Shown here one piece after another: positions 12,113-35,065 of a DNA stretch of 64,000 bases (position 1 is the stretch's first letter; each line of letters begins with the position of its first letter). A model generated the notes under the pieces. That model was not told where the DNA came from and did no database searches. It saw nothing but the letters and a program-made list of their open reading frames with translations. The position numbers and the translations under genes are program-made. The DNA is taken from positions 1 to 64,000 of IMG/VR virus record IMGVR_UViG_3300042924_004713, one strand, 5' to 3'. The DNA is from a virus.

Positions 12113-12346
12113 ATGTCTATGAAATATCTAATGGCGTTGCTGGCACTGCCAGTGCTCATGGGCTGTCAGGAAAACTATCGTTATCCCTGTCAGGATCCTG
12201 ACAATTGGGAGAAAAAAGAATGCCAAAAACCCTATTGTAGTGCCAACGGTACCTGCCCCGAAGACCTAACACACTATGAAAAAGAAAAAGTCAACAGCGC
12301 AGCACCTCAACCTGTGCCTGCGCCTGCTCAAGGAGAATGCAAATGA
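12113..12346 (+). CDS. Cys-rich lipoprotein
   Basis: MKYLMALLALPVLMGC lipobox, four further Cys. Confidence 0.7.
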   Translation: MSMKYLMALLALPVLMGCQENYRYPCQDPDNWEKKECQKPYCSANGTCPEDLTHYEKEKVNSAAPQPVPAPAQGECK

Positions 12347-12807: not shown

Positions 12808-13049
12808 ACATGACATGGCTATGTCGCATGCTCACAGCAGAAGGTGAACGTTATCCTAGCAGCAAGCGTGTGATAACGTTTGTGGCCTTTGTGCTGGTGG
12901 CCGTGGGATTTTTTGCTGAAACTTTTTTTGGTTATACCACAAAACAATTTACCATGGAAAGTTTGATGTATATAGTACTAGGAGGCCTAGGATTCACGGC
13001 CTCAGAAAAATTTTCTAGAAAGGAAAAACAAAATGACGTATCTCAGTAG
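12804..13049 (+). CDS. Small two-TM membrane protein (holin-like)
   Basis: SSKR then two hydrophobic helices and a charged tail. Confidence 0.55.
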   Translation: MNMTWLCRMLTAEGERYPSSKRVITFVAFVLVAVGFFAETFFGYTTKQFTMESLMYIVLGGLGFTASEKFSRKEKQNDVSQ

Positions 13050-13236
13050 CATTCTATTCGCAATTATGTTGGCCATGAGCCTGCCTGTAATGGCCAATAA
13101 TCATGAAGCCAAGCCTGAAACCAAAAAAGTCTGTATCAAGACCAAAGATGCAAAGAGCGGCAAAGAAATCGAAAAGTGCCGTGATGTTAAGATACATAAA
13201 AAGCTCGAGGGCACTGAAATTCCACCTAAAAAATAA
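13033..13236 (+). CDS. Small secreted basic protein
   Basis: Signal peptide ending VMA; two Cys; Lys-rich. Confidence 0.6.
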
Positions 13237-19163: not shown

Positions 19164-22100
19164 ATGCATATCGATGAACTGGAAAATTATAATTTAGCCG
19201 ACGCTGTACGATTTCACGACGAGCTGAATCCTGGACTTTGGGGCAAAGACGAACATCTGCGCCCCGAAGTTCGTGAAGCACTGCTGCGCATTGCAGACGA
19301 TTTTCGTGAATTTCTAGGTGTTAGTGATCTTGAAGTTCAAGACATCACTATTTCTGGCAGCAATGCTGCCTATAATTACACCCCCAACAGTGATATTGAT
19401 CTACATCTAGTGGTCAATATTCCCGAGCTTGACGATGAAGTCTATCGCGAATTATTCAACGCGAAAAAATATCAATACAACGATCAGCACGATATTCGTG
19501 TGCGCGACGCTGATGTTGAACTCTATGTGCAACCAGCCAATGATCCGCATATCAGCCAAGGCATCTATAGCCTAGTAAACAACAAGTGGCTGTCAGTTCC
19601 CCGACGTCAACGAGCCAAGATAGATGACGACAGTGTGCGTCACAAGGCCGAAGATCTAGAAGCTAGAATCAATCAGGCCATTGAATCTGGCGATCGTGAA
19701 ACCATGGATCGCTTGTGGCAAAAGATCAAGGACATGCGCAAAAGCGGACTAGAACAAAAAGGTGAATTCAGTACAGAAAACCTAGTGTTCAAGATGCTGC
19801 GTGTGAACAAATTAATAGAACGTCTGCAAACAGCACGTCAAGCAGCACGTGATCAAGAACTCAGCCTTAGCGAAAGAAAACGCAAGAAGTCTCGTAAACG
19901 CTATGCATATGGTGGTTACTGGTATCCAGGCTACAGCTATTATGGCAGCGGTTCTGAAGGCAGTGACAGTGGTGGCGATGGCGGCGGTGAAAGTGTTCAA
20001 GAAGACGTAGGCTCAACCTGGGATGGAGTGAGTCCTACCACAAGAATGTTCACTAGCGAACAAGAACACACTGAAAACAAAAACGTAATTGGTAAATTTG
20101 CTAGATTTGTGGCACAGCAGATAGGCATGAGCAAGTTGCCACGTATCCGTGTCACACGAGATCCAAAATGGAGTTCCAAAAACGGTACATTTGGACACTA
20201 TGATCAAAATACACAAACACTGACCATTAGTCTGGCCAATCGCCATATCATGGATGTGCTTAGAACCATGGCTCACGAGCTAGTGCATGCACATCAGGAT
20301 CGCGAACATGGCTTGCCTAGCACAGCTGGCAAGACTGGTAGTCCATATGAAAACGAAGCCAATGCGGTGGCGGGTCGTATCATGCGACGTTGGGCCAAGA
20401 AACATGGCAATATGTTTGATCAGCCTGCCACAGAAGACTATGATCCCAATGCCAGACCTCCAGGACCTGAAACCAAACCCACTATGCCAGCTGGCACTGT
20501 GAGAGTTGATGTTAGTGATGTGTATGACTGGTACAAACTAGGACAGCACATCAGTGACCTCGAAGGTCTAGGCAAACATGATTTTGGCAAAGGACCGCCT
20601 AGTGCTATTTTTAGTTTTGGTGACGAAGACACCGAACACAAATATATTAACAATCTGAAGCGCACTGGCCTTGATGTCACGGACATTGATCCACGCGATC
20701 CCAATCAGCCGCCAGGCATGAAGAAAATCAAAACAGATCCAACCTATAATGTTGATGAAGATTGGAAAAGCAGTCTAGGTGCAGCAGCCGCGGCTGCATG
20801 TATTGCAGGCACACCAGGCTGTGCTACCACTAACACAGATAGCAGTCCCACTGCTGATGTGCTAAGAGGTGTACAAACTGTAGGACGTACAGCACAGGCA
20901 GTAAAGGACATGGGCGTGGGTGGCGCCAAAGAAGAACTAATCAATCAACTTCGTGACAAACTGCGCGGTATACGTGAAGCCACTGGTTACATTCCCACAA
21001 AAAAACAAGCTCGTGATCCTAGATTCTCCATGGCCTTGACAAAGGATATTCAGCCAGGCCAGATTGGCAAGGAAGCAAACAAACTAAAGTTAGACACTGA
21101 CAGTCAAGGTCATCCTGCGCTGTTAATGAAACGTCTTAACAATCTGCTGGAATCAGTTAAGACAGACGAACAATTAGACGAAGACGAACTGTTTGAACTC
21201 AAAATGAGTCCCAGCAATCTGGCCAAAATGGCCAAAGACATTGATGCTAGAGCTGGTCTAGAGTTTGAAATGTATGTGCCTAATGTAGACGCCGACGACG
21301 AGGAATTTGAATCCGAGCCGGATTACGGTGCCGACGAATATTTCCCTATGGGTCCAGGCTGGCAGAGTGATGTTATGGATTTCTTCCGTGGTGGAGATAT
21401 GAGCAGTCCTAGAGTTCTTATTCAACGGGCAATTGATGAACTAAATGAAAATTTTTATGAGTGGGTTGGCGAGCAAGAAGAAGAGTTTTTAGCATCCAAC
21501 GAAGGACGAGAACGAGCCATAGAAATCGCTACCAGCAATGTAAGCAGAGACGATTTTGAAACAGACGAAGAATATGAAGCTGCCGTTCGCGAATACCTGA
21601 CAGACAATGAAGACGACATTAGAGATGAATTAATAGACGAATTCCGCGATGATCTTGATAGCAAGTTCGAAGAATGGCTAGACGATCAAGGCATTCGTAT
21701 GATGGCAGATTTTGCGAGCGAATACGGTTTAGAATGGCCATATTGGACCGAGCCAGATGATTACAGCAGAGGCGGAGCAGACATCGACGACGTAGCACGA
21801 GACTTCCAAGATGCTGTTGGACGTCCGGTGAAAACTGGTGGTTATCACAGCGGTGCTTATAGTCAAACCAATAACTATCGTGTGGAAACAGACAGTAGCT
21901 TGAGTGATCCAGACGAACCAGGTGATGCAGGCTTGGAGTTTATCAGTCCGCCCTTGACCATTCCTGAGATGCTGGGAGATATCAAAAAGATCACTGCCTG
22001 GGCTAATCGTGTGGGTGCATATACCAATGACACCACTGGCCTACACATGAATATCAGTGTACCAGGGTACAGCATGCAAAAGCTAGACTATGTAAAGTTG

Positions 22101-23975
22101 GCCATGTTCTTGGGCGACAACTATGTTCTAGAGCAGTTTGGTCGTGCAGGAAATACCTATTGCAAGTCAGCCCTGAATAAAATCAAAGCAGAAGTAAAAC
22201 AAGATCCCGCAAGACTCAAAAACATGCTTCAGGCCATGCAGGGAGAATTAAACAGCATAGCCAGCAAAATTGTTCATACCGGCAACACTGACAAATATAC
22301 CAGCATCAACACCAAGGACAATCGTGTGGAGTTTCGCAGTCCTGGCGGCGATTATCTTGACATATTAGCCAACGATCCTGCACAGATCACAAACACACTG
22401 CTGCGCACAGTGGTAGCTTTGGATGTGGCCATGAAACCTGAAGCGTTCCGTCAAGAGTACATGAAAAAGCTGTACAAGACTCTCACACCAACGGAATTCA
22501 CAGGCGGTCGAGGCGAGCGTCAAACTAGATTGGAATCACAGACCAACGAGGTCGCTGACCTGCTCAGCAAGTACATCGCAGGTGAATTGCCGCAGTCAGC
22601 ACTAAAAAGCTTTATCCAGCAGATTAAGAAAAAGCGTGACGATAAGAAGCAGCCACCAGAAACGCAAACACCTAGTCGTGATCAAGAGTTTTCAGGCACT
22701 TGGGAAATTGTGGCTCGTAATACCGACGAAGTAGTACGCCAATTTAGTGGTGTTGGTAATGCCATAAGAGATGCTGAAGTGTGGGCAAGAAGATGGGCAA
22801 TGGATACCGGATATGATGATCCGTACTATGTGCGCCCTGTAATGCGACCAAGAACCGCGCCACCTGAAACCTCCATTTATCAAATTGTAAACTACCAAGA
22901 CGGTGAAGTGTTAAGTCCGGGACTAAACATGCCTTGGGTTTATGCTCGTGCTCTTGCTGATGATATAGCTCGGCGTCGTGGTATGGGTAGAGCCGACATC
23001 AGAATTGTTGACCTAGAAAACAATCAGACCTATAGTTTTGAAGGTAGACTGATACAGCCAAGTGTGAGAGCCACTGCCGGGGAACCTGTACCAGCTGGTA
23101 GTGTAGGTGGTGGATTCGCTCGAGCACCACATACCAGCATATATCAATTGATTGATAATAGAAATGGTCAAATAATGCTAGGCGGCGAAACAAGAACTTT
23201 TGCTGACACCGTAGAGAAGGCCAATATTTTAATGCGTGACTATAGGCTTACAGCTGATGATATTAGAATTGTTGATATGTATACCAATACTGTATATGAT
23301 ATCAATGGTCGTCCTGTAAGTGGCAACAATGCTAATACTTCTAGCATAGATGGCGAGCAAAGCACAGATGCCAACTACGAAATCATTGATCTTGAAACTC
23401 GTGGACCAGTTTTTAGATTCATTGCCAACACCGATCAAGAAGCACAGAGAAAGTTTATAGATTGGTTGGAAGCAGGTGATCGCTTTATTGGCCAGTATTA
23501 TTGGCGTAGAATTGAAGGTCGTGGCATACCAGGGTCAACAGCAGAACTGCAACGACAGCGATCAGATCAGCAAGTACAAGGTTTTAGAGTCTCTTATACC
23601 GTTACCCATGACGATGAAGTTAGAAATAACACTGTGACTATTCAAGCCCGTAATGCTGACGCTGCAATGGATGTTATGAGAACTAATTTACAACGGGCTG
23701 GATATGAGGTTCTTAGAATTGAAGCTGAACCTGTGGCACAAACTCTAGAGCCACCACCAGAAACAGTAGATATTTCAATGCCCGGTCAGGCTCGCGGAAC
23801 AGAAAGCTTACCACCCGGCAACACTCGCTGGTTGATACTTGATCCAAACGACCGTGAAGTATATAGTTTTGTACATCGTAGTAATCAAGGCGAAGCAAAT
23901 CAATATGCTGTGAACTGGCTAAGACAAAACGGTCTACTAGGCAGTGGCGAATTCATGGTGGTGCCAGCAAGATGA
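19164..23975 (+). CDS. Large polyvalent protein: Pol-beta nucleotidyltransferase, HExxH metallopeptidase, putative amidoligase, C-terminal repeats
   Basis: GSNAAY..SDIDLH; MAHELVH..E.EANA; GLEFE, GLEFISPP, TGLHMNIS, VEFR; duplicated TSIYQ...DIRIVD modules. Confidence 0.8.
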   Translation: MHIDELENYNLADAVRFHDELNPGLWGKDEHLRPEVREALLRIADDFREFLGVSDLEVQDITISGSNAAYNYTPNSDIDLHLVVNIPELDDEVYRELFNAKKYQYNDQHDIRVRDADVELYVQPANDPHISQGIYSLVNNKWLSVPRRQRAKIDDDSVRHKAEDLEARINQAIESGDRETMDRLWQKIKDMRKSGLEQKGEFSTENLVFKMLRVNKLIERLQTARQAARDQELSLSERKRKKSRKRYAYGGYWYPGYSYYGSGSEGSDSGGDGGGESVQEDVGSTWDGVSPTTRMFTSEQEHTENKNVIGKFARFVAQQIGMSKLPRIRVTRDPKWSSKNGTFGHYDQNTQTLTISLANRHIMDVLRTMAHELVHAHQDREHGLPSTAGKTGSPYENEANAVAGRIMRRWAKKHGNMFDQPATEDYDPNARPPGPETKPTMPAGTVRVDVSDVYDWYKLGQHISDLEGLGKHDFGKGPPSAIFSFGDEDTEHKYINNLKRTGLDVTDIDPRDPNQPPGMKKIKTDPTYNVDEDWKSSLGAAAAAACIAGTPGCATTNTDSSPTADVLRGVQTVGRTAQAVKDMGVGGAKEELINQLRDKLRGIREATGYIPTKKQARDPRFSMALTKDIQPGQIGKEANKLKLDTDSQGHPALLMKRLNNLLESVKTDEQLDEDELFELKMSPSNLAKMAKDIDARAGLEFEMYVPNVDADDEEFESEPDYGADEYFPMGPGWQSDVMDFFRGGDMSSPRVLIQRAIDELNENFYEWVGEQEEEFLASNEGRERAIEIATSNVSRDDFETDEEYEAAVREYLTDNEDDIRDELIDEFRDDLDSKFEEWLDDQGIRMMADFASEYGLEWPYWTEPDDYSRGGADIDDVARDFQDAVGRPVKTGGYHSGAYSQTNNYRVETDSSLSDPDEPGDAGLEFISPPLTIPEMLGDIKKITAWANRVGAYTNDTTGLHMNISVPGYSMQKLDYVKLAMFLGDNYVLEQFGRAGNTYCKSALNKIKAEVKQDPARLKNMLQAMQGELNSIASKIVHTGNTDKYTSINTKDNRVEFRSPGGDYLDILANDPAQITNTLLRTVVALDVAMKPEAFRQEYMKKLYKTLTPTEFTGGRGERQTRLESQTNEVADLLSKYIAGELPQSALKSFIQQIKKKRDDKKQPPETQTPSRDQEFSGTWEIVARNTDEVVRQFSGVGNAIRDAEVWARRWAMDTGYDDPYYVRPVMRPRTAPPETSIYQIVNYQDGEVLSPGLNMPWVYARALADDIARRRGMGRADIRIVDLENNQTYSFEGRLIQPSVRATAGEPVPAGSVGGGFARAPHTSIYQLIDNRNGQIMLGGETRTFADTVEKANILMRDYRLTADDIRIVDMYTNTVYDINGRPVSGNNANTSSIDGEQSTDANYEIIDLETRGPVFRFIANTDQEAQRKFIDWLEAGDRFIGQYYWRRIEGRGIPGSTAELQRQRSDQQVQGFRVSYTVTHDDEVRNNTVTIQARNADAAMDVMRTNLQRAGYEVLRIEAEPVAQTLEPPPETVDISMPGQARGTESLPPGNTRWLILDPNDREVYSFVHRSNQGEANQYAVNWLRQNGLLGSGEFMVVPAR
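22869..23320 (+). repeat. Diverged tandem protein repeat (2 copies, about 60 aa)
   Basis: TSIYQIVNYQDGEVL...ADIRIVDLENNQTYSFEGR vs TSIYQLIDNRNGQIM...DDIRIVDMYTNTVYDINGR; boundaries approximate. Confidence 0.75.
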
Positions 23976-25549
23976 GAGCCAGCGAGTTTATTGTAGAATC
24001 AAAGATACCTGATGTGGTCTATCACGGCACGGCATCTGCCAACCTCACCAACATAATGAAACACGGTATCAAACCCAAGTTAAATCGTTATGCATACTCC
24101 AATAGACAACACGGTGGCGGAATAGCAACAGGTTTAGAACTAGAGCCAGGTAAACGTAGAAGTGATTTAGAAACTATCAGCACCAGTGTGAACTTTGACA
24201 ACAGTTTAGAGTATGCCAAATTGGGTGGCAGCACAGGTTCAGGCTCTCCTGGCGTGGTACTAGCGTTTCGTCCATTGCCCAGTGATAGCTTTGAAGAAAC
24301 CGGCATGCCTGGTGAAGTTGTATTCCGCAATGCTATCTCTCCAGATAGACTACAAATAGTCTGGCCCCAACGACTAGCGGGCAAAGAAAAACAACTCGCA
24401 CAAAAAGCCGAAAAGAAAAAACAATCAGGTGCTGAAAAAACACAGCAGATCAAAAGCATTAACCAGCAACTCAAAGCCGCAGGTTCTAGTATAAGAATCA
24501 AGTCAACCAACCCTAATACTGCAAGAATTGCCATATGGTTTATGGATCCTGACAACCCTGTACAGGTAGGCAACACCAACATAGATGATCAAAATTTCGC
24601 AGTATTCTTGAAAAAAGAACTAGCTAACCCTGCACCCAACAAACAACGCTATTATGGTAGAACCAATTGGTTAAATGAATTCGCTCCTGAAGGATTTGAG
24701 CAATACAGTTTATACACCGGTGATGGTGTTAGAAATCATTTAGTTGATAAATTTTCGTCATTAAACGCAGCCAAGGAAGAAGTTGAGTTTATATGGGACT
24801 CAGATCCCGAAGCTCGTCTGGCTATATGGTTTATTAAAAATCTAAATGATGAAGTGGTGTGGTCCTATGATCCACAGGAAATAGCGGATGCGCCAAGATA
24901 TCAGTTTAGAAAAAAATCTGATGATCTTGAAGAAATGAATCGTAGAGGATTCCTAGGAGCCATGGGAGCAGGTGCAATGGCTGCTGCGGGAGTTCCCTCA
25001 CAAGCAGCTAACAAGGTGGGACCACCCATGCTCAGTGCCAACATTGGTGCAGAAGAGGCTCTTCATCGTGCGGCTCGTGCTGCTGGCATACGTGGCGTGG
25101 AACTTGCGCAGTTTCTAGCACAGTGTTATCATGAGTCTGGCGGCTTTAAATACATGCAAGAACTAGGTGATCCACGTTATTTTCTACGATACGATCCTAG
25201 AGTAGATCCTGCCAAGGCACGTGTGCTAGGTAATGTAAAGCCAGGAGATGGTGAACGCTACAAGGGTCGTGGATTTATACAGATCACTGGCAGAGATAAC
25301 TATCGTAGAGCCGGTGAAGCTCTGGGTCTGCCCTTGGAAGACCGGCCAGAACTCGCAGCTAGAATGGATGTGGCAGCACGTATTGCAGTATGGTATTGGA
25401 AACAAAGAGTCAAGCCCAATGTGTCTAATTTCAATGACACTCGTGCGGTGACTCGGCAAATCAATCCCAACATGCGCGGTCTTGAAGATCGACATGAAAA
25501 TTTCAAAGACTATAAAAAGGTCTTTAGTATGAATTGGAAAGCTGTATGA
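23972..25549 (+). CDS. Polyprotein: ADP-ribosyltransferase-fold domain, middle module, Tat-signal-like segment and GH19 lysozyme
   Basis: VYHGT..STS..YA..EVVF; EEMNRRGFLGAMGAG; AQCYHESGGF, YKGRGFIQITG. Confidence 0.8.
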   Translation: MRASEFIVESKIPDVVYHGTASANLTNIMKHGIKPKLNRYAYSNRQHGGGIATGLELEPGKRRSDLETISTSVNFDNSLEYAKLGGSTGSGSPGVVLAFRPLPSDSFEETGMPGEVVFRNAISPDRLQIVWPQRLAGKEKQLAQKAEKKKQSGAEKTQQIKSINQQLKAAGSSIRIKSTNPNTARIAIWFMDPDNPVQVGNTNIDDQNFAVFLKKELANPAPNKQRYYGRTNWLNEFAPEGFEQYSLYTGDGVRNHLVDKFSSLNAAKEEVEFIWDSDPEARLAIWFIKNLNDEVVWSYDPQEIADAPRYQFRKKSDDLEEMNRRGFLGAMGAGAMAAAGVPSQAANKVGPPMLSANIGAEEALHRAARAAGIRGVELAQFLAQCYHESGGFKYMQELGDPRYFLRYDPRVDPAKARVLGNVKPGDGERYKGRGFIQITGRDNYRRAGEALGLPLEDRPELAARMDVAARIAVWYWKQRVKPNVSNFNDTRAVTRQINPNMRGLEDRHENFKDYKKVFSMNWKAV

Positions 25550-26274
25550 AAATCACAGAATTTGTCACGGAAGACTGGCAAAAGACCAATCGCAAGGACA
25601 AGACCTCGGGCATGAGCCGCAAGGCAGTTAAACAATACCGCCGTGAAAATCCCGGCAGTAAACTGCAAACCGCTGTGACCACCAAGCCCAGCAAGTTGAA
25701 AAAAGGTTCTAAGAGCGCCAAGCGTCGCAAGAGCTTTTGTGCTAGAATGCGTGGCATGAAGAAATCACGCACTTCAGCCAAAACAGCTAGAAATCCCAAT
25801 TCAAATATTAATAAAGCACTGCGCCGTTGGAACTGCGAAAGCATTGAGCAAATGCAAGAGCTGGTAATGATTGCCGAGCAAAAGATCGCTGCGTTGCGGC
25901 AAGGTGTGGCGGAAGATCAAGAAGATATCGTAGCCGTCATTGATGGTGTACGTTCGGATAGAACTTACAACGATAGATATCACGCACACAATTCTTTATC
26001 AAAACTAGTGGGATATGGCAAAGCCAAGGTAGCAGAATTGTATATTAACGGCGAAAAAGTAGAACACTTTGAACTAGGAAAAAAATATATTGATTTTGAA
26101 CCCAAGAGTCTAGGTTCAATGTCAGAGGCAGGTCCATTCTCATACGGTGCCAAGAAGCCTAGAAAAGGTAGTGTGGCAGATCTTGCTGCAAAGAAACGCC
26201 AAGAACAGGAAAAAGGCAAGCTGCCTGCGGAACCTAAAGACCATATGGTTGGCACAGCACGGATAATCAAATAA
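25546..26274 (+). CDS. Modular protein with very basic N-terminal module
   Basis: MKITEFVTE, then K/R-rich RRKSFCARM...ALRRWNC; further modules after VAE and MSE. Confidence 0.75.
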   Translation: MKITEFVTEDWQKTNRKDKTSGMSRKAVKQYRRENPGSKLQTAVTTKPSKLKKGSKSAKRRKSFCARMRGMKKSRTSAKTARNPNSNINKALRRWNCESIEQMQELVMIAEQKIAALRQGVAEDQEDIVAVIDGVRSDRTYNDRYHAHNSLSKLVGYGKAKVAELYINGEKVEHFELGKKYIDFEPKSLGSMSEAGPFSYGAKKPRKGSVADLAAKKRQEQEKGKLPAEPKDHMVGTARIIK

Positions 26275-26275
26275 A

Positions 26276-26812
26276 ATGAGAGCACAAGAATTTTTAAAAG
26301 AAGAAACAGGCAATGAGCAAGATTTAGAATCTCTCAAGGAAGCCTGCGAAAACTGGATGGAAATGTATTTTGATGCTAATGACATCAATACAATTTTAAC
26401 ACATCCTTATAGTCAACAATTCAAGCAACCACCAGCCGGTATAGAAAAACTTTATCGTGGACTGGTAGTTGCCGGTGGAAAAGTAAAGGCGGTGCCCGGT
26501 AAAAGCAATAGAAAGTTTGTGGCCTATGCCACACACCCCTACGGTGCTGAAGCATTCTTGGCCAGTCTTGATGTTGGCGGTCGTAAAGTAATCATTGAAA
26601 AACAGTTTAACCCCGCTGACTTTGTGTTAGACTTCACAGGCCTGTATGAAAGTTTGTTTCCTGATCAAGGTCTTCACAATCGGTATGAAACTGAATACGA
26701 AGTTTGGATGCGAGCCACAAGATACTATCAGTCAGCGTCAGAGCAAGAAATAATTAAAGACACTGCCTGGGGTCAGACCGACGACGGTGAACCAGGTAGA
26801 GGAAATCTCTAA
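26276..26812 (+). CDS. Putative ADP-ribosyltransferase-fold protein
   Basis: MRAQEFLKE tag; LYRGL, aromatic-AT strand, ETEYEV (ExE). Confidence 0.55.
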   Translation: MRAQEFLKEETGNEQDLESLKEACENWMEMYFDANDINTILTHPYSQQFKQPPAGIEKLYRGLVVAGGKVKAVPGKSNRKFVAYATHPYGAEAFLASLDVGGRKVIIEKQFNPADFVLDFTGLYESLFPDQGLHNRYETEYEVWMRATRYYQSASEQEIIKDTAWGQTDDGEPGRGNL

Positions 26813-27357
26813 TGAGAGCTTCTGAGTTTATCGCAGAAGGTGTGTCAGTGAGAGATCAGATCCTAGCTGATGTTAAAAAACACGGCGGTGATACCGATGA
26901 TTACTTTGTAAGATACACCAGTGTTGATAAACTAGGCTTCAGCGCACGTCAATGGTTTTCTAGAACCCCCGATGTGGATCATCCAAAATTTCACGTGGAC
27001 TTTATAGGACACGATGTGGGTCGATTGGCACTTTGGTTTTATCCCTTGAAAACTGCCATGGACACCAGTAGAACTCTGTATGGCAGTGAACAACCCTATG
27101 TATGGTTGGTCAAGCTCCGTCCTGATGCTTGGCTACAGACTGTCAAGCGTGGCGACAACACAGTTGAGCCGCCACCTCCAGGCAAACAAAGAGTGGGAAT
27201 ACTGCGCATGAGTCAACCTCCTGCTGCTATCTTTTTCCGGCCCGCATTTGATGTGATTGGTAGATATTATGATTATGCCTCTAGACACAAAAGACATGGT
27301 GAAGTCAAAGGGCCTCCCCCGCCCACACTGTTCCAAAGAATTCGGGGTGAACGATGA
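26812..27357 (+). CDS. Hypothetical protein with MRASEFIAE tag
   Basis: ORF coupled to upstream stop (TAATG). Confidence 0.7.
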   Translation: MRASEFIAEGVSVRDQILADVKKHGGDTDDYFVRYTSVDKLGFSARQWFSRTPDVDHPKFHVDFIGHDVGRLALWFYPLKTAMDTSRTLYGSEQPYVWLVKLRPDAWLQTVKRGDNTVEPPPPGKQRVGILRMSQPPAAIFFRPAFDVIGRYYDYASRHKRHGEVKGPPPPTLFQRIRGER

Positions 27358-27377
27358 AAACATTTAGGAACTAGACC

Positions 27378-28475
27378 ATGCGCTTACACGAAATTCAACA
27401 ACAGCGTAGACCGCATCTTTTTCTTGACATGGATGGTGTTCAAGCAGACTTCTTTTCAGCCTGGGCACGCTTGTTTGGCAAAGAACGCTACAAAGAAATA
27501 GGCAATCGCGCACAACGCGAAGCCACTATCGCAGATCTCAATGCACGTGGTCCTGAATTTGTAGAAGAATTCTTTACAAACTTGCCTGTGTTGCCTGGTG
27601 CGCAGACTCTAATTAAGTTTCTACGTGACAATGATATCAAGTACACAATTCTAAGTGCGCCGCTGCGTGGCAACGAAGCTGCTAGTATCCGCGGAAAGTT
27701 GGCATGGTTAGATCGCCATCATCCTGGCACATCTGCCACTGCGATCTTCACAGGCGAAAAACAACGCTATGCCACTACCAATGGTGAACCAAATGTGCTA
27801 GTTGATGACTTCAAGAAATATGTGAATGCCTGGACCGCAGATGGTGGCATTGCTGTGCTGTATCGTTGGAATAATGTTGGCGCTGCAATTGAACAGTTGA
27901 AAAAGATCTATGGATTAGAGCCAGGTGCTCAGGTCAACAGTCTTGATGCATTACAAGAGGCAGTGGTAGGCACGCTGTATCCTAAAAAAATACTAGGCAC
28001 TGCTAGAGTAGGTGACTTGTCTATTCCTATACACCGTCATCTATATGATCAAGCGCAGAGCCGTGGAATTGATCTAAAAACCATAGAACGCACACTGCGT
28101 AGACTGCCCAGAATAGCCAGCAAACTCAAAAAAATTGAAGCAGGAAACAAGGTATGGGTTTACAACCCTCACGATGAAATTAGTCTAGGCTTTTTTGCAC
28201 TGGACAGTGGTGGATATTTGTTGAACACAGTGATTCCCAATGCGCCACATCAACAGGGAGTTACTGATGTGATACGCATGTATGAAGCAGACATTGAAGA
28301 AAATTTTGCAGACGGTAAAGTCAAGGGCCGGAGCCGGCCTGGGCGTGTAAAACGTGCGGGTGCCAGTTGTGATGGCAGTGTAACCAGTTTAAGAGCCAAG
28401 GCCAAAAAATACAGCGGCGAACGAGGTCGAATGTACCATTGGTGTGCAAACATGAAATCAGGACGTCAAAAATGA
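27378..28475 (+). CDS. HAD-family 5'(3')-deoxyribonucleotidase-like domain plus two extra modules
   Basis: LFLDMDGV, ILSAP, K, LVDD; tail ENFADGKVKG...C...HWCANMKSGR. Confidence 0.8.
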   Translation: MRLHEIQQQRRPHLFLDMDGVQADFFSAWARLFGKERYKEIGNRAQREATIADLNARGPEFVEEFFTNLPVLPGAQTLIKFLRDNDIKYTILSAPLRGNEAASIRGKLAWLDRHHPGTSATAIFTGEKQRYATTNGEPNVLVDDFKKYVNAWTADGGIAVLYRWNNVGAAIEQLKKIYGLEPGAQVNSLDALQEAVVGTLYPKKILGTARVGDLSIPIHRHLYDQAQSRGIDLKTIERTLRRLPRIASKLKKIEAGNKVWVYNPHDEISLGFFALDSGGYLLNTVIPNAPHQQGVTDVIRMYEADIEENFADGKVKGRSRPGRVKRAGASCDGSVTSLRAKAKKYSGERGRMYHWCANMKSGRQK

Positions 28476-28894
28476 GAGACCTACTTAATATACTAGAAGC
28501 AGTGAGCCGCGGCTGTCCTCCTGCAACACAAGACATTGATCTTAATCTAAAGAATCGTCAGAAGGCCATAGAAGAATATCATTATGGCCCGCTGAATCCC
28601 AATGAACCCAATGAAGAATACTGGGCTGAACTAGCCGACAAATGGAATACCAGTGATATTGAATCTGTAAAACAGAATCGCTGTGGCAACTGTGCTGCAT
28701 TTGACATCTCAGAAAAAATGCTGGACTGCATTGCCACTGGTATTGGTGCAGAACCCGGATCAGATCCACATGATACCATAGATGCTGGTCAGCTAGGCTA
28801 CTGTAAGTTTTTGAAATTCAAATGTGCTGCCAAGCGTACCTGCGATGCCTGGGTAGAGGGTGGTCCTGTGACAGGAGAAAAAAATGAGAGCTAA
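28472..28894 (+). CDS. Cys-rich protein with HiPIP-like Cys spacing
   Basis: RCGNCAAF...GYCKFLKFKCAAKRTCDAW. Confidence 0.55.
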   Translation: MRDLLNILEAVSRGCPPATQDIDLNLKNRQKAIEEYHYGPLNPNEPNEEYWAELADKWNTSDIESVKQNRCGNCAAFDISEKMLDCIATGIGAEPGSDPHDTIDAGQLGYCKFLKFKCAAKRTCDAWVEGGPVTGEKNES

Positions 28895-29258
28895 AGAATT
28901 TGTAAAAAAGTCCGCCACTGAAGCTGAAATGCCCTGGAAGGATGCAGTGGATGCAGGTGCCATGACCACACAACAGGGTGCCAAAATAGCTGCCAGTGAT
29001 ATTTCTCAAGCCATTGGTGATTTGGAAAAAAATCAAGCTGCCATTGGTAAAGAAATTGCCACACAAAGAGCTGCTGCCAATTCAGTGCCCTCCAACGTAC
29101 AAGTGACCAGCATGAAGCCAGATGGCAGTTGGACCGGACGTGAGCTACCCAAAACTACTAAAATTGGTCCTATTTCAATTACACGAGGCAGCGGTAATCC
29201 TGTAGCCGGCGGTGCAGTGAAAAAAGCACCACCTGCCTATCCCCCAGGCGCCATCTAA
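28884..29258 (+). CDS. Hypothetical protein with MRAKEF tag
   Basis: SD AGGAG; ORF. Confidence 0.65.
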   Translation: MRAKEFVKKSATEAEMPWKDAVDAGAMTTQQGAKIAASDISQAIGDLEKNQAAIGKEIATQRAAANSVPSNVQVTSMKPDGSWTGRELPKTTKIGPISITRGSGNPVAGGAVKKAPPAYPPGAI

Positions 29259-29323
29259 AAATACACCTGCTGATTTCAGGCCACTAAGTACCAGGCGAAA
29301 ATTCGCTTTTTATAGGAGACTTT

Positions 29324-30262
29324 ATGGCAACCAAAAAACCGGCCAAAAAAACAGCAGCGCCAGCTAAGAAAGCAGCCGCTCCTGTAGCCAAAAAACCCGT
29401 GGCAAAAGCAGCCAAGGCCAAACCCAAGGCTCGAGCCAAACCCCGTGCGCAGGTAGTTGAAGCTGTGGAACAGGAACTGGAATTCAAACCAGTGAGCAGT
29501 TTCTTGAGCATGCATGCTGCCATGGATCCCGAGGCACAAGCAGCCATGATCGCAGAGCAGACCAAACGTGCGTTTGATGTTGAAGCCTATGTACAATTTA
29601 ATGTGGCTCAAACACAGGTAGCAAGATCAATCGTTGAAGAAAACGTCACTGACGCCATGCAGAGCTGGGCTATCAATGCCGGTGGTAATCGTGAAATGAT
29701 CATGCGTACCACAGACGATGTTTATCGCAATCGTCTCATGATGTTGAATCTGTTGAAGCCCGAGAATCCTGTGGAAGCAGCGTTTCAGGAAAGCATGATC
29801 AACAAGACCAAACTGGAATATCTGCAACATCGTAATGTCATGAACCGTCGCATGGCTGATATTGCATATGAAATGGCCAATGCTATCAAGGCCATTGGTG
29901 CAGCGTCGGAGAAATTCTATAATGCCAACGAAGAAATGGCAGCATTTATCAACGACACCGCAGACGAAAATGCAGTATGGTTTGATGGTGAGCTGCGTAA
30001 AATGATGCGTGAAGCCTCAAATGTCACAAATGATCAGCGTATTCAGCACACCATGGAAGTGAGTCAGCTGCTAGCAAATGATGCACAAACAGGCCGTGCT
30101 CGTATTCGCGAAGTTGCAGAATTTGCACAGGGTCTTGGTGACAGTCTGCAGGAACTGCAAGAGTCAGGCAATGAACTGCGCGAAGAAGTGATTAATATTC
30201 GTGAAAAGATCGACGCAGGTCAACGCCGTATCGCTGACACCATTGTAAACAAGCGTAAATAA
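29324..30262 (+). CDS. Coiled-coil protein with histone-H1-like Lys/Ala/Pro N-terminus
   Basis: KKPAKKTAAPAKKAAAPVAKK; SD AGGAG; TAAGTA upstream. Confidence 0.75.
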   Translation: MATKKPAKKTAAPAKKAAAPVAKKPVAKAAKAKPKARAKPRAQVVEAVEQELEFKPVSSFLSMHAAMDPEAQAAMIAEQTKRAFDVEAYVQFNVAQTQVARSIVEENVTDAMQSWAINAGGNREMIMRTTDDVYRNRLMMLNLLKPENPVEAAFQESMINKTKLEYLQHRNVMNRRMADIAYEMANAIKAIGAASEKFYNANEEMAAFINDTADENAVWFDGELRKMMREASNVTNDQRIQHTMEVSQLLANDAQTGRARIREVAEFAQGLGDSLQELQESGNELREEVINIREKIDAGQRRIADTIVNKRK

Positions 30263-30264
30263 AT

Positions 30265-30516
30265 GTGGCCCAGATACGTTGGTGCTGGCGTTGGTACGAT
30301 GGACATACCGCAGTAGCTAGAAACAGTCTGCGTAGGTCCCGTATACTAAACCAGTTACGCCGTATACATAGACAACACCCCGCTTTGAAATTCACAGTCA
30401 AACGCGGGGAGTTTTTTATAGAAGCATGGTTTGTGGATACAAATGATCTGCTGATATTTGCTTTGATATGGCCACCAACTTGTCCTGTGTGGGAGAAATT
30501 TGATGATATTTCCTGA
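30265..30516 (+). CDS. Hypothetical protein
   Basis: ORF fills the gap between genes. Confidence 0.5.
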   Translation: MAQIRWCWRWYDGHTAVARNSLRRSRILNQLRRIHRQHPALKFTVKRGEFFIEAWFVDTNDLLIFALIWPPTCPVWEKFDDIS

Positions 30517-30787
30517 TATGCCTAAACGTCAACACTGGTGGGATCAACACACTGAACCTGTGTCGCCAGTTGCAGTTGAAACCCACACTGTGGTTGTGCC
30601 AGAACTCACGGCTGTCAGCGCCGAAGAATGGTTTGCCAAACATTTTCCAGACACAGTGCCCACAGCTTTGCCCAGTCACCGTGAGCCTTTTGACTGGCGT
30701 AAAGATCCACGGGGCACAGCAGAATTTGCTGCGCTGTGTGGGTTCTTGATAGCATGGGTAGCCTACTGGTATCAAGTATCTCACTAA
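30503..30787 (+). CDS. Hypothetical protein with C-terminal TM helix
   Basis: ORF; hydrophobic C-terminus. Confidence 0.5.
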   Translation: MIFPDMPKRQHWWDQHTEPVSPVAVETHTVVVPELTAVSAEEWFAKHFPDTVPTALPSHREPFDWRKDPRGTAEFAALCGFLIAWVAYWYQVSH

Positions 30788-30794
30788 ATAATTG

Positions 30795-31010
30795 ATGCGC
30801 TTGAATGAACTATTTGAAAACTTGGTACAAAACTATGATCTATACCAAGCTCAGGTGAAAATACAGCAGCCTGGTTATCTAGGACGTATCAACGTCACGG
30901 TGAGTGCGCCCAGCGCCGCTGCGGCACGAGCACTGATCAAAGCACAGTATAATGTAAAAACACATGATATTGGCCAAGTTCGTCGCATGCCCGCAGGAAA
31001 GAAACTATAA
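30795..31010 (+). CDS. Small protein with MRLNELFE tag
   Basis: TAAATA 30785-30790 directly upstream. Confidence 0.7.
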   Translation: MRLNELFENLVQNYDLYQAQVKIQQPGYLGRINVTVSAPSAAAARALIKAQYNVKTHDIGQVRRMPAGKKL

Positions 31011-31432
31011 TGCGTGCTAGAGAGTTTGTTCCAAGAGCCTGGTATGTAACAGTAAACGGTGATCCTGGCATTCTCACAAGAAACACCACACCTGGTGAAC
31101 AGCCCTGGAGAGTCACTTGGTTTGATAGAGAAGATCATGAACCCAATGGTCACACGGACATCAGCAAACTACAAGCCCGTCAGATTCAACGCGGTAACAA
31201 CATAGAAGTTGTAGATCAAGACATAATTTACTATATAGATGCCGGTGAAGAACTTGCGGAAAACAGTTTGTTCTGGCGCCAATATCCTTGTACCAAAGAC
31301 TGTTCAGGTCACCAAGCAGGTGATTCCTGGGCACAGGCACGCGGTATCACAGATGTAACACAATGCCCTCCTGGCAACAGCAACAGCTGGTGGGAAGGCT
31401 GCAAAAGCGAAGCCGAAAAACGTCCTTATTAA
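31010..31432 (+). CDS. Two-module protein with MRAREF tag and Cys-rich tail
   Basis: CTKDCSGHQAG...C...WWEGC after ELAE. Confidence 0.7.
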   Translation: MRAREFVPRAWYVTVNGDPGILTRNTTPGEQPWRVTWFDREDHEPNGHTDISKLQARQIQRGNNIEVVDQDIIYYIDAGEELAENSLFWRQYPCTKDCSGHQAGDSWAQARGITDVTQCPPGNSNSWWEGCKSEAEKRPY

Positions 31433-31435
31433 GCT

Positions 31436-33334
31436 ATGAAACAAAATGTGTATCTTTATGCTCCTAACTTTGAGTCAGGACATGGAAATGTAACGTCGGT
31501 GTGGCTACCCTATACAGTGGGCTGTATCTGGAGTTACGCCATGACCGATCAAAGGCTACGAGATAACTTTAATTTGTGTGGTCTTGGGTTCCTGCGTGAT
31601 CCAGTTGATCAAGTGGTTGATAGTCTTGACAACCCAGCGGTGTGTGGATTTAGTACCTATATCTGGAACGAAAACTACAACCTTGCTCTCAGTAAGGCTA
31701 TCAAGCAAAGGTATCCCAATTGCTTGATCTTGTTTGGTGGTCCTAATGTGCCCAATGAAGAAGAAGTTCTGCGACAGTGGCGCAAGGATCATGCCTGGAT
31801 TGATGTATCCATTAGATACGAGGGAGAAATTGCGTTTAAAAATGTGTTGCATGATATTCTTGACAACAAGGTCAAAAGAGACTATGTGGCACATAGAGTA
31901 GAAGATCTTGAAGTGCCTAGTCCTTATCTAACCGGACTGTTTGACGACATTGTCAAAGACAAACAATTCATGTACTCCATGACCATTGAGACCAATCGTG
32001 GTTGTCCATTTCCCTGTACCTTTTGCGACTGGGGTAGTTTGACCTATGCCAAGATCAAGAAATTTCCCTTGGAAAAAGTTTTTGCAGAAATAGAGTGGTC
32101 AGGACGTAACCAAATTGAGTTTATTAGTCTAGCTGATGCTAACTTTGGCGTGTTTCCTGAGCGTGATCAAGCCATTGCCGAATGTTTTATTGAAACCAAG
32201 AAAAAATATGGGTATCCACAGCAGATCAGTTGTACATGGTACAAAAACTCCAATGAAGTAATTTTAAACATAGCCGAGGATCTTACACGTCATGGCCTAA
32301 ACCGTGGACTCACACTAAGTGTACAAAGCATGCACGAGCCCACGCTCACTGCTATCAAACGCAAGAACATGAAGATCAATGATCAGAGTCTGCTGTTTCA
32401 AGAATGCAATCGTAGACACATACCTTTTTATACCGAGCTGATTCTAGGCATGCCCGAAGAAACACTGGCCAGCTGGCGTCAAGGCCATTTGGATCTAATT
32501 GAAATGGGCCAGCATGGTTGTGTGTACATGGCTCCCATTGAGCTGCTGCGCAACGCAGAAATGACCAAACAGATTGATCAGTACAAGATCAAAAGCACAG
32601 TGATATCTGACTATTGGACCTGTGCTCGCAGCGGTATCAGCGAGTGCCAACACATAGCCACGGAAACCAATACCATGTCCACTGATGACATGATAGATGC
32701 TACTATTTTTTCCTGGATGATAATTTCATTTCATCATCACGGCTGGACAGAGCTATATTCAAGATATCTACACAAGCGTGGCTGGAGCTACAAACAGATC
32801 TACGATAATCTTGAAACATGGTTAATGAGCCACCCTTACTACAGCCAACAAATAGCAAAGTTTAGAAGCACAGTGAGTGATTTTTACCATCACAGTAGAA
32901 GCATTGAATACTATGCTCTCTGGGAAGGCGTAAAAAACATGTATGTGGATAGACAACAACATCTTGACAACATAGCAGCATGGTTTCAAACTCTTTGTCA
33001 AGATGACTGCTGCGATGAAATAATTGAACTACAAAGGCATTGGATAATTGATCCATATGGAACCAGTAAGAACACAGTGGAACTGCCCAGTAACTTGATC
33101 TATTGGATATTAGATCTAGAACCCGTGGTAACCAAATCCCCCATACAGTGTGAATTTTCCACTAGCCAAACCGAGTCATGGGCTAACCTAGAGGAGTTCC
33201 TGAGTTTTGTTGTGCTACGCAGAAAAGAAAGTTTTGGCAAAGCCATTGTTAATATTTTGCCGCAACAAACACCAGCTGATTTTGAACTAAATATGGAATG
33301 TCCAATGACATTGTCAAACTTGTCTGTAAGCTAG
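31436..33334 (+). CDS. B12-binding-domain radical SAM protein
   Basis: GFSTYIWN, GGP, EGE, RGCPFPCTFC (CxxxCxxC), DANFG, ELILGMPEET. Confidence 0.9.
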   Translation: MKQNVYLYAPNFESGHGNVTSVWLPYTVGCIWSYAMTDQRLRDNFNLCGLGFLRDPVDQVVDSLDNPAVCGFSTYIWNENYNLALSKAIKQRYPNCLILFGGPNVPNEEEVLRQWRKDHAWIDVSIRYEGEIAFKNVLHDILDNKVKRDYVAHRVEDLEVPSPYLTGLFDDIVKDKQFMYSMTIETNRGCPFPCTFCDWGSLTYAKIKKFPLEKVFAEIEWSGRNQIEFISLADANFGVFPERDQAIAECFIETKKKYGYPQQISCTWYKNSNEVILNIAEDLTRHGLNRGLTLSVQSMHEPTLTAIKRKNMKINDQSLLFQECNRRHIPFYTELILGMPEETLASWRQGHLDLIEMGQHGCVYMAPIELLRNAEMTKQIDQYKIKSTVISDYWTCARSGISECQHIATETNTMSTDDMIDATIFSWMIISFHHHGWTELYSRYLHKRGWSYKQIYDNLETWLMSHPYYSQQIAKFRSTVSDFYHHSRSIEYYALWEGVKNMYVDRQQHLDNIAAWFQTLCQDDCCDEIIELQRHWIIDPYGTSKNTVELPSNLIYWILDLEPVVTKSPIQCEFSTSQTESWANLEEFLSFVVLRRKESFGKAIVNILPQQTPADFELNMECPMTLSNLSVS

Positions 33335-33585
33335 ATTGCCGCTGGGAAGGGCTTGCCCCAACCTATCGCGCCTGGGTCAACAATGAGCTGTTTACCGAAC
33401 GCACTTGGATTTGGACTGAAAACTATATTGAAGAAATATTTCAAGTCAAGGCCATACCCGGAAAATACCGTATTAGATTTGAGTTGGTACAGCCCTGTCT
33501 AGCGGACTTGATTTTTCTAGAAATGCGAGCATTGCACGGTCCAGTGCGTGTAAAAAGTGGTGGCATATTTTTGATTGATTCTTAA
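33298..33585 (+). CDS. Hypothetical protein
   Basis: TAAATA 33288-33293 upstream. Confidence 0.6.
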   Translation: MSNDIVKLVCKLDCRWEGLAPTYRAWVNNELFTERTWIWTENYIEEIFQVKAIPGKYRIRFELVQPCLADLIFLEMRALHGPVRVKSGGIFLIDS

Positions 33586-33586
33586 C

Positions 33587-33763
33587 ATGAGAGCAAGAGA
33601 ATTCATAGGCGAAGATGTATCAACTACCAGCGCCAGTATTGCCCCGGTTGCACAGAGCCTGGGACACATGCCAATGATCAGTCGCATGGGCCGAGTGCCT
33701 ACTGTGCATAAATATCAGACTAGAAAACCTAAACGGACTAAAAATGCTGGCAGAATCGCTTAA
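33587..33763 (+). CDS. Small basic protein with MRAREFIGE tag
   Basis: Shared N-terminal tag. Confidence 0.65.
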   Translation: MRAREFIGEDVSTTSASIAPVAQSLGHMPMISRMGRVPTVHKYQTRKPKRTKNAGRIA

Positions 33764-34187
33764 AACTATATTGGCTTCAAGCTACGCTTATGTGATCAAA
33801 GCGCAGTTTTTTCATTGGAACGTAGAAGGGCCTGACTTTGCTCAACTGCATGATTTCTTTGGCAAGATCTACGAAGAAGTCTATGACAATTCCATTGATC
33901 GCTGTGCTGAATTCATCAGAGTACTTGATGACTACGCTCCGGGTAGTTTTGAACGATTCGCGGAACTGTCTATTATATCTGGACAAATCAAAGTACCTCG
34001 TGCTCGACTCATGCTGGAAGAACTATTACAAGATACAAATAATATGTTGGCATTGTTAAACACTGCGTTTCAAGAAGCAGATGCAGATCAACAGCAAGGT
34101 ATTGCTGACTTTCTGGCCGAACGAATTGACGCCATGGGCAAACATCGTTGGATGTTGAGATCGTTTCTCAAGGAAGCACGAGCATGA
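33744..34187 (+). CDS. dps: Dps/ferritin-family protein
   Basis: HWNVEGPDFAQLHDFF, DRCAE, KHRWML. Confidence 0.92.
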   Translation: MLAESLKTILASSYAYVIKAQFFHWNVEGPDFAQLHDFFGKIYEEVYDNSIDRCAEFIRVLDDYAPGSFERFAELSIISGQIKVPRARLMLEELLQDTNNMLALLNTAFQEADADQQQGIADFLAERIDAMGKHRWMLRSFLKEARA

Positions 34188-35065
34188 ACGATATCTACAC
34201 CATCCTAGCCAGACTGGAAGCCATACAAGAAGGCAGTACCACGCCAACTAAACTGTCAAAAGATCTCAACCCGCAACAAAAAGCAGTGCCTCAATTGCCT
34301 GCTCTGTTCAAGCCTAATAAGATTTCAGTTCTGGGTGCCAAAACTGATCCAGATCATCCCATGCGTGGTTACGCAGTGGGTGCAAGTGAAAGTGCTGAAA
34401 CCGAAGTAGAAGAAGACTGGCGCAGTGCCGCAGCAGCAGGTGCATTGGCCGCTGCTAACCTTCTGGGTACACCGGCTCAAGCAACAGAACCTGTGAAACC
34501 AATCACAGTAGCGCATGTGACCATAGATGGTGAAACACGCACATACAATCTTGGTGATAGATTTAAAAGTTCCAAAGAAGCAGAAAAGTTTATCAGCGAT
34601 GTACTAGATCGTCAAGGGCTGTCAGGTTACAGTCTTGACATCAAGACCGGCGTGCCAAAGAACACAGACAGCACAGCAATGAAAGAACAAATAATCGCAG
34701 CCGAAGACATGCTGGGCAAAATACGTCGTGACTTAGCAGATTACCTCCGCAGCGTAGAAGATGAACTAGTGGGACGAGATAGATCACTGATACGCAAGGC
34801 CAAGCAAGAACTCGCCAAACCTGACATTGAAAAGTTTCTACCAGTCAAAGTTATCAGCACCGACGATGGTAAAGAACTCAGAATACATGGCAACGAAGAC
34901 GATGGATTTAGAATCAGTGTGCATGAAAAAATGCTACCCACTGCATTTGAAAGCCTTGAAGAAGCCAGCATGGCCTGCGAAATGTACTGTGCTCGTAGGC
35001 GTGGCCAGCCCATGGAAGCCAATCCAGACTACGTGGATGAGCGCGACAGCACAGCAAAGCATTAG
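34184..35065 (+). CDS. Modular hypothetical protein with internal signal-peptide-like segment
   Basis: MNDIYTILARLEAIQE; internal VEEDWRSAAAAGALAAANLLGTPAQA. Confidence 0.7.
   Translation: MNDIYTILARLEAIQEGSTTPTKLSKDLNPQQKAVPQLPALFKPNKISVLGAKTDPDHPMRGYAVGASESAETEVEEDWRSAAAAGALAAANLLGTPAQATEPVKPITVAHVTIDGETRTYNLGDRFKSSKEAEKFISDVLDRQGLSGYSLDIKTGVPKNTDSTAMKEQIIAAEDMLGKIRRDLADYLRSVEDELVGRDRSLIRKAKQELAKPDIEKFLPVKVISTDDGKELRIHGNEDDGFRISVHEKMLPTAFESLEEASMACEMYCARRRGQPMEANPDYVDERDSTAKH

Follow-up and report, generated by a model that had tools for sequence, protein, structure and literature searches.

What could a segment that resembles a protein export signal do inside a long polypeptide, directly behind a glutamate and away from the N-terminus? 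The question is raised by two proteins, of 1603 and 293 amino acids (aa), encoded on the plus strand of IMG/VR virus record IMGVR_UViG_3300042924_004713. The window is the whole stretch of DNA that was analysed, the first 64 kb (64,000 nucleotides, nt) of this 166,408-bp record, for which CheckV gives a completeness of ~48%. The source is an uncultured giant T4-type lake phage; its DNA polymerase is 46-50% identical to its closest counterparts, which come from giant phages, Sinorhizobium phage Phosso and Agrobacterium phage Atu_ph07 among them. A preliminary description of the window had proposed that the two segments are copies of a reusable cassette, a cleavage site plus a signal peptide, that sends released cargo to the envelope. 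The reading given a modest preference here is that each cassette would be a general secretory (Sec)-type signal, unmasked by a protease, on cargo that is packaged in the head and injected.

Both motifs lie where they had been described: VDE/DWKSS at 20751-20828 and VEE/DWRSA at 34406-34483, the slash marking the putative cut. The 1603-aa open reading frame (ORF) reads TYNVDE/DWKSSLGAAAAAACIAGTPGCATTNTD (longer stretch DWKSSLGAAAAAACIAGTPGCATT), with D533 at nt 20760. The 293-aa ORF reads ETEVEE/DWRSAAAAGALAAANLLGTPAQATEPV (longer stretch DWRSAAAAGALAAANLLGTPAQATE), with D78 at nt 34415. Common to the two copies are E-D-W-(K/R)-S, an uncharged core rich in Ala, and G-T-P; beyond this point their sequences diverge, just as the preliminary description had it; the A-Q-A site that it saw in the 34415 copy occupies residues 21-23 of the segment. 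The range it had flagged, 20750-20980, coincides exactly with the piece that starts at V530 and ends at GIRE605, where the next hydrophobic-x-E site lies.

Across all six frames of the 166-kb genome, these two copies are the only matches to the motif, and only five hydrophobic-x-E-[G/D]-W sites occur in the whole genome, three of them in the array of tagged genes described below. The likeness of the pair to each other is weak, with a local alignment score of 65 against 44.4 +/- 6.5 for shuffled sequences (shuffle maximum 73; z ~3.2), and the DNA of the two copies is without notable similarity. A cassette profile built without the rows from the window was run on the 1,732 six-frame ORFs of the genome. 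The best match was the 293-aa protein (E 1.1e-7) and the next best the 1603-aa protein (E 0.016), with the third ORF at E 2.2. Because of these values, the 34415 copy is assigned clearly to a large family, and the 20760 copy is taken as a divergent, marginal member.

The layout of this family is hydrophobic-[D/E]-E/G-W-K-x-K, an Ala/Gly-rich core and A-x-A ~22 residues on. Scanned with a degenerate DNA pattern, matched exactly, for E-G-W-K-x-K-x-A-[G/A]-A-A-L-A, IMG/VR gave 81 sites at 79 loci, where the sequences behind the segment form 12 unrelated passenger clusters; two cassettes can occur in one ORF. The contigs are of freshwater metagenomic origin. A looser DNA pattern, E-D-W-K...G.AA, returned mostly chance matches. 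The full profile, of 35 columns from 38 distinct cassettes, was run on 1.84 billion representative proteins and matched 387 at E<=1e-3 and 19 at E<=1e-10. Such a search for passengers across proteomes had been suggested in the preliminary description, whose idea of a reusable cassette holds for the 34415 type and is marginal for the 20760 copy. Common passengers are a beta-beta-alpha-beta domain, the DDPNINRLTGKP family and the KYDPSW family.

The cut site is the most uniform part of the cassette. Statistics were taken from 155 sites in 143 of the best 150 of the 387 matched proteins. P1 is Glu at every one of the 155 sites; a cassette not tied to an upstream Glu in homologues had been named in the preliminary description as grounds for refutation, and on this count the idea is not refuted. 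P3 is V, L, I, M or F at 152 sites and P2 is D or E at 133. P1' is G at 152 sites and D at 2, the window copies having this rare D form, and W stands at P2' in 144. The same P1/P3 pattern is seen at the ends of N-terminal tags in the window (FIVE/S, FVTE/D and FIAE/G), and module boundaries coincide with hydrophobic-x-E elsewhere too, for example at Q-G-V-A-E/G in a polyprotein of locus L037.

Positive n-region, hydrophobic core and A-x-A c-region make up the textbook n/h/c Sec signal peptide of Gram-negative bacteria, and the residues behind the Glu follow this order. The first six carry a net charge of +1 or +2 at 154 of 155 sites (mean +1.45; DWK and DWR in the window copies). The h-region is uncharged in the window copies (SSLGAAAAAACIAG and SAAAAGALAAANLLG) and rich in Ala, Gly and Leu across the family, with a core of ~13-17 residues. 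Gly or Pro follows, then a small-x-small site at 22.1 +/- 1.9 residues (A.A in 143 of 154), and the sequence is polar after it. The maximum 19-mer Kyte-Doolittle hydropathy averages 1.16 across the sites, below the usual threshold for a transmembrane span. By 10-mer maxima the buried signals reach 1.5-2.1, against 2.5-3.5 for the ordinary N-terminal signals of the phage; low signal hydrophobicity is expected of post-translational SecA/SecB substrates. Small ORFs at 10101-10412, 12113-12346, 13033-13236 and 50949-51851 (+) begin with Leu-rich signal- or lipoprotein-like sequences, e.g., MSMKYLMALLALPVLMGC and MKKLLTMLLLLTMSVSVNA. They show that the phage, as far as can be predicted, uses normal N-terminal signals too, and that these are much more hydrophobic than the buried ones.

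What precedes the cut sets the cassette apart from an ordinary signal peptide. No cassette is N-terminal: among the 155 sites the earliest starts at residue 14 and the median is residue 201. The 12 residues before the cut have a mean net charge of -3.0, against a background of +0.1 (standard deviation 1.9), and an acidic stretch in front of the n-region should prevent recognition of the signal. Even the shortest carriers (139-180 aa) have a tag and a leader in front. Those of 139-157 aa consist at this end of MKAKEFIPASKPRNF, then ~45 basic residues and D-[I/V]-D-E/GLKSK, and those of 160-300 aa begin M-[K/R]-I-N-E-I-I-T-E-S-x-E-L-E-E/GWKSK. For one passenger, termed module B, tag and leader are kept in all eight near-length relatives, and a search for stand-alone forms of one passenger returned the query alone.

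Portability is clearest in the 293-aa protein, for which a search of 5.8 billion proteins found 274 relatives. Mapped onto it, they cover module A (residues 1-78), the cassette (~72-162) and module C (168-287). In some relatives, such as the 185-aa P0034, modules A and C are joined directly without the cassette. The cassette in turn is found inside otherwise unrelated proteins, at 55-78% identity and at residue 10, 50, 120, 200 or 300, where it reads [V/I/L]-[D/E]-E, G-W-K-S-K, AGAALAAANLLGSPAQA and then a domain of ~55 residues; V-K-E/A closes its passenger in relatives. AlphaFold2 models this domain as beta-beta-alpha-beta with a predicted local distance difference test (pLDDT) score of ~80, and leaves the Ala-rich segment unstructured outside the fold (pLDDT <50). 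The signal-like segment is conserved as well as the folded passenger.

In the 1603-aa protein, the piece from residue 533 to 605 (73 residues) lies between two x-x-E sites, NVDE/ and GIRE/A. It is missing as a whole from three distant homologues (L082-L084), where the HExxH region meets the following module at (I/V/T)-x-E/(S/A/G)SGYIPTK. Because it is bounded in this way and missing there, the piece is regarded as an inserted unit, a signal-like segment plus 50 residues. The sole close relative, a 71%-identical homologue on another contig (L081), reads NVDE/DWKSALGTAAAAACIAGTPGCATT and keeps the site and both Cys residues.

The strongest argument that the buried segments are export addresses comes from the neighbouring array. 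Its 525-aa tagged product reads DDLEE/MNRRGFLGAMGAGAMAAAGVPSQA/ANK, with a twin-arginine translocation (Tat)-type signal (RRGFL...SQA) in the slot that the Sec-type segment holds elsewhere, and a GH19 lysozyme domain, a cell-wall enzyme, downstream. The layout is like that of the Sec-type cassette and the predicted export address is different. Products of the array begin with tags similar to the capsid-targeting sequence (CTS) of T4: MRASEFIVE, MKITEFVTE, MRAQEFLKE, MRASEFIAE, MRDLLNILE, MRLNELFE and MRAREFIGE. Among cassette carriers, 75 of 135 fit the strict tag pattern, as compared with 22 of 174 ORFs of this genome. Pfam and PHROGs place a T4-type head module, including a prohead protease gene, at the far end of the record, where a conserved protein occupies the position of the T4 scaffold gene.

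Features of the two proteins, the tagged array and the head module (positions in the window unless marked as genome)
Feature	Position	Strand	Remarks
1603-aa modular protein	19164..23975	+	N-terminal nucleotidyltransferase, HExxH region, inserted modules, domain in common with Atu_ph07 and RsoM2USA proteins, C-terminal small repeats
V-D-E, residues 530-532	20751..20759	+	Putative prohead-protease-type site, directly before the signal-like segment
Signal-like segment DWKSSLGAAAAAACIAGTPGCAT	20760..20828	+	Divergent, Cys-bearing, lipobox-like cassette variant; profile E 0.016
50-residue passenger	20829..20978	+	Ends at GIRE605, the next hydrophobic-x-E site
Gene array	23972..33613	+	Products with T4-CTS-like N-terminal tags
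L-E-E, then Tat-type signal MNRRGFLGAMGAGAMAAAGVPSQA	24926..25006	+	Before GH19 domain, in 525-aa tagged protein 23972-25549
293-aa modular protein	34184..35065	+	Tag, module A, cassette and passenger, module C
N-terminal tag MNDIYTILARLEAIQE	34184..34231	+	Ends I-Q-E; like a capsid-targeting sequence
V-E-E, residues 75-77	34406..34414	+	Putative prohead-protease-type site
Sec-type signal-like segment DWRSAAAAGALAAANLLGTPAQA	34415..34483	+	n-region with R, Ala-rich h-region, A-Q-A c-region; E 1.1e-7
Passenger	34484..34687	+	Small beta-beta-alpha-beta domain ending AMKE168
Module C	34688..35062	+	C-terminal module
Portal	head module, far end of record		phrog_213
Head maturation protease	genome 161235-161675		T4-type prohead protease; phrog_207; Pfam Peptidase_S77, 91 bits
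Major head protein	head module, far end of record		phrog_138

From the observed anatomy, conservation, portability and protease gene, a route of packaging, cleavage, injection, export and passenger action can be proposed. A precursor with a T4-like capsid-targeting tag would be loaded into the prohead, where the T4-type prohead protease would cut after Glu at the hydrophobic-[D/E]-E sites that bound each module. The cut would strip the strongly acidic flank and leave a new N-terminus, G/D-W-K/R, with a positive n-region, a weakly hydrophobic core and A-x-A. The resulting fragment of ~70-90 residues would be ejected with the DNA into the next host, exported by the post-translational Sec pathway of that host and trimmed by signal peptidase I. 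The Cys-bearing copy of the 1603-aa protein might enter the lipoprotein pathway instead. The tags and the T4-type protease point to unmasking in the capsid and export in the next host, over release in the producing cell.

Each half of this route resembles a known system. In T4, a 10-residue capsid-targeting sequence brings internal proteins into the prohead and is removed by gp21, residues 8 and 10 governing the processing (PMC9026906). IPI, IPII, IPIII and Alt bear this sequence, undergo gp21 processing and enter the host along with the DNA (PMC9026906, PMC5694885), and the prohead proteases of T4, phiKZ and SPN3US all cut after Glu (PMC5694885). As in T4, a short tag of the MKTYQEFIAE type, ending in hydrophobic-x-Glu, is common to unrelated cargo here, and the genome encodes a T4-type Peptidase_S77 prohead protease. 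The site of action of T4 cargo, however, is the cytoplasm, and its cut sites are not known to be followed by an export signal. In the lake phage, many predicted cuts are internal, between modules, and one class of module starts with a Sec- or Tat-type signal. The segment itself agrees with Sec signal peptides under the von Heijne n/h/c scheme and the -3/-1 rule in its positive n-region, Ala/Leu/Gly core, Gly/Pro, A-x-A at ~22 and polar start. It differs from them in its internal position, the acidic flank and invariant Glu before it, the strict G-W-K and the lower hydrophobicity. By analogy, the cargo would follow the course of T4 internal proteins until it is injected, and from then on that of an ordinary Sec preprotein; the position away from the N-terminus is the point of interest.

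Polyvalent proteins are another point of comparison. They are large and hold many unrelated effector domains, and packaging, delivery together with the DNA and cleavage into pieces have been proposed for them; signal peptides, the periplasm and transmembrane segments are unmentioned in their description (Iyer, Burroughs, Anand, de Souza and Aravind 2017; PMC5512222). The 1603-aa protein may resemble them, with a putative nucleotidyltransferase and an HExxH region. Its processing is ascribed here to the head protease at x-x-E, unlike that of polyvalent proteins, which is ascribed to an embedded metallopeptidase. In adenovirus protein VI and the nodavirus gamma peptide, a maturation cleavage in the capsid exposes a hydrophobic N-terminal peptide for the membrane of the next cell. 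In-capsid cleavage would likewise expose an N-terminal peptide acting at the next cell here; those peptides disrupt membranes and have no passenger, whereas the phage segment is export-signal-like and stands before varied passengers.

Two T4 proteins of superinfection exclusion, Spackle and Imm, act in the periplasm or membrane early in infection and are made after infection with ordinary N-terminal signals or anchors. The passengers showed no sequence or fold likeness to them in Pfam, a PDB fold search or the ESM Atlas. The role in superinfection exclusion offered in the preliminary description found no support, as the passengers match no known family.

Several other readings account for part of these data. 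In one, the capsid protease would expose a Trp-Lys-flanked, small-xxx-small (glycine-zipper-like) helix, a membrane-active or anchoring peptide that inserts in the host membrane at ejection and opens or lines the DNA entry path, or tethers cargo. The conserved G-W-K suits it, interfacial Trp beside Lys being typical of the ends of membrane helices, as do the small-xxx-small spacing repeated in the core (AGAALAGAAALGGGGA), the occurrence of several cassettes in one protein and the automatic name SlyB that one relative of the 293-aa protein bears in its source. Yet the hydrophobicity maximum is low and the core short for a membrane span, no glycine-zipper Pfam family matches ten carriers at E<=1, and A-x-A, followed by a change to polar residues, is retained at ~22 residues in front of unrelated passengers. 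A peptide that breaches membranes has no need of a dozen passengers, and a Tat signal in the same slot of a neighbouring gene makes sense as an export address only; this reading is considered rather unlikely. A second alternative, the simplest form of the idea in the preliminary description, leaves the capsid out. The uncut precursor would insert in the producing cell through an internal signal-anchor, signal peptidase I would free the downstream part to the periplasm, and the role would be lysis control or exclusion. Internal start-transfer sequences are known in bacteria, and the A-x-A site would serve such an anchor equally well. An acidic flank of -3.0 before a weakly hydrophobic core is, however, a poor substrate for the signal recognition particle or for anchoring. 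The sites lie at a median of residue 201, and up to ~1184, behind large folded enzymes, and the ordinary secreted proteins of this phage have Leu-rich N-terminal signals instead. Module C, which elsewhere accompanies inserts acting in the cytoplasm, would be dragged across the membrane unless cut free, and carriers are enriched in capsid-type tags. The signal-anchor is accordingly judged quite unlikely.

It is also conceivable that the segments have no dedicated function, being relic signal peptides from gene fusion or low-complexity Ala-rich linkers whose likeness is due to chance. The weak similarity of the pair and the E value of 0.016 for the 1603-aa copy are what one would then see, and A-x-A arises readily by chance in Ala-rich sequence. 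For the 34415 type this reading is in large part refuted: the segment is kept in 387 representative proteins, with E, G, W and K called invariant, at least 12 passenger families have it in front of them, and the segment is as conserved as a folded passenger. The source gene of a secreted protein would begin with the segment, and none of the carriers does; as a whole the relic reading is very unlikely. A B12-binding radical-SAM gene inside the array suggests one more possibility, that the tags are recognition leaders for this enzyme (31436-33334) and the x-x-E sites serve leader removal, in a pathway like that of ribosomally synthesised and post-translationally modified peptides. Cassette carriers are long multi-domain enzymes and not short precursor peptides, and a homologue of this gene or of a second radical-SAM-like gene was found within the fetched flanks of only 1-2 of the 79 cassette loci; the idea is hardly credible.

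A number of observations weigh against protease-unmasked export of injected cargo. No recognisable periplasmic function was found in the passengers with Pfam, a PDB fold search or the ESM Atlas. Near-identity DNA and protein searches of cultured phages with both proteins and two other carriers recovered upstream modules only, with neither cassette nor passengers. G-W-K is conserved far beyond the needs of a generic signal n-region. This strict start hints at a second recognition event, and a subsite preference of the protease may also account for it. The profile includes upstream columns, which slightly favour sites that have Glu and a hydrophobic residue at P3. The tie to Glu is still not a profile artefact, because the listed matches score 44-85 bits and a cassette lacking Glu would still be listed. 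In the window, the T4 late-promoter motif TATAAATA shows no enrichment (1 match, 1.26 expected). As for the 20760 copy, it matches the profile marginally and lacks A-x-A (it has G-C-A-T). The lipobox rule is [LVI][ASTVI][GAS]-C at the end of the h-region, and C546, preceded by A-A-A, and C553, preceded by T-P-G, fit it imperfectly, neither being canonical. Finally, the 1603-aa protein begins with MHIDELEN, a stretch that belongs to the nucleotidyltransferase family and is not clearly a tag.

Further searches returned little. Pfam on ten carriers and 140 post-cassette stretches gave one GH19, one TAT_signal and one Pterin_4a match only. The beta-beta-alpha-beta passenger had no PDB fold match at E<=1e-3 and only weak small-domain neighbours in the ESM Atlas, and a fold search of that atlas with the 533-605 piece gave nothing. 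The nearest cultured relatives by DNA polymerase, Phosso, Atu_ph07 and E. coli phage Turkey3, had no cassette at E<=1. In the 1603-aa protein, the nucleotidyltransferase match is below the Pfam cut-off, PHROG 36119 matches at 1.7e-43, and the HExxH motif is present with no MPTase family match in Pfam. The C-terminal third of this protein (22900-23975, +) holds several diverged copies of a domain of ~60-70 residues, with repeat motifs such as SIYQIVNYQDGEVL, SIYQLIDNRNGQIM, NYEIIDLETRGPVF and RWLILDPNDREVYSF; its distant homologues end in the same kind of small-domain repeat.

Some relatives of the 293-aa protein carry other cargo. In P0024, P0026 and P0021 the A...C scaffold holds inserts like ribosome modulation factor (RMF; PF04957) or the SutA RNA-polymerase-binding domain (RBD; PF20661), all matches being below curated cut-offs; the RMF-like and SutA-RBD-like inserts look like candidate injected modules for host takeover. 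A ferritin/Dps-like gene (33744-34187, +; PF00210, E 9e-18) has a stop codon that overlaps the start of the 293-aa gene (ATGA), and its homologues occur at 6 of the 79 cassette loci. The polyprotein of locus L037 (7139-8686, +) has its modules split by the repeated Q-G-V-A-E/G junction, one of them nearly duplicated with KCASLAAKYFNSEGLQRQYDIDEYIK present twice, and is a clear case of cargo delimited by cut sites. Carriers P0123-P0130 and P0145 have a basic leader, KPRNFVAKNQKTAGAGAHKDKK, between tag and cut site, which matches Pfam DUF7230 at E 5e-6, just under the cut-off.

In the array, the tag of a 242-aa protein (25546-25581, +) ends V-T-E/D-W-Q-K, the same E/D-W junction as in both flagged sites, and the module DWQK(T/A)N(R/K)RDKT.GMSRKAVK is found again at the C-terminus of an L051 carrier. 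Just upstream of the array, a gene at 14124-16385 (+) encodes a 753-aa ClpA/ClpB-like double AAA+ protein (phrog_4871, E 7.5e-237). Homologues lie within the fetched flanks of 27 of the 79 cassette loci; this co-occurrence may reflect conserved synteny with the cytidylyltransferase gene or a functional link, e.g., unfolding of cargo. The B12-binding radical-SAM gene (+) sits mid-array and the second radical-SAM-like gene (36404-37450, +) just after it. Both are untagged, and a linkage of the cassette to radical-SAM genes was rejected on the count of loci given above.

A literature search, drawn mostly from sources outside subscription journals, returned no account of a protease-unmasked export signal in phage head proteins. 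What is added here is the definition and census of the G-W-K Sec-type cassette, the statistics of 155 sites, the acidic mask and the insertion anatomy of the 1603-aa protein. A broader generalisation, evenly poised between right and wrong and drawn from sequence comparison, is that giant phages of the T4 type use a modular three-part label: a capsid tag, a head-protease site masked by acidic residues, and a Sec, Tat or lipoprotein signal. Such a label would keep envelope proteins cytoplasmic in the producer, have them packed and unmasked at maturation, and let the Sec or Tat machinery of the next host deliver them to the periplasm within seconds of injection, before phage gene expression. If this is true, injected phage proteins reach beyond the cytoplasm, and pre-made proteins could remodel or defend the envelope of the newly infected cell, with proteolysis as the switch from packaging to secretion. 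It would also mean that a Sec signal can work when it is created by cleaving a finished protein. The pattern x-x-E/GWK.K-Ala/Gly-AxA would then be a searchable handle on several hundred dark-matter passengers, probably periplasmic, and T4-type packaging vectors might be designed along these lines to deliver proteins to the periplasm.

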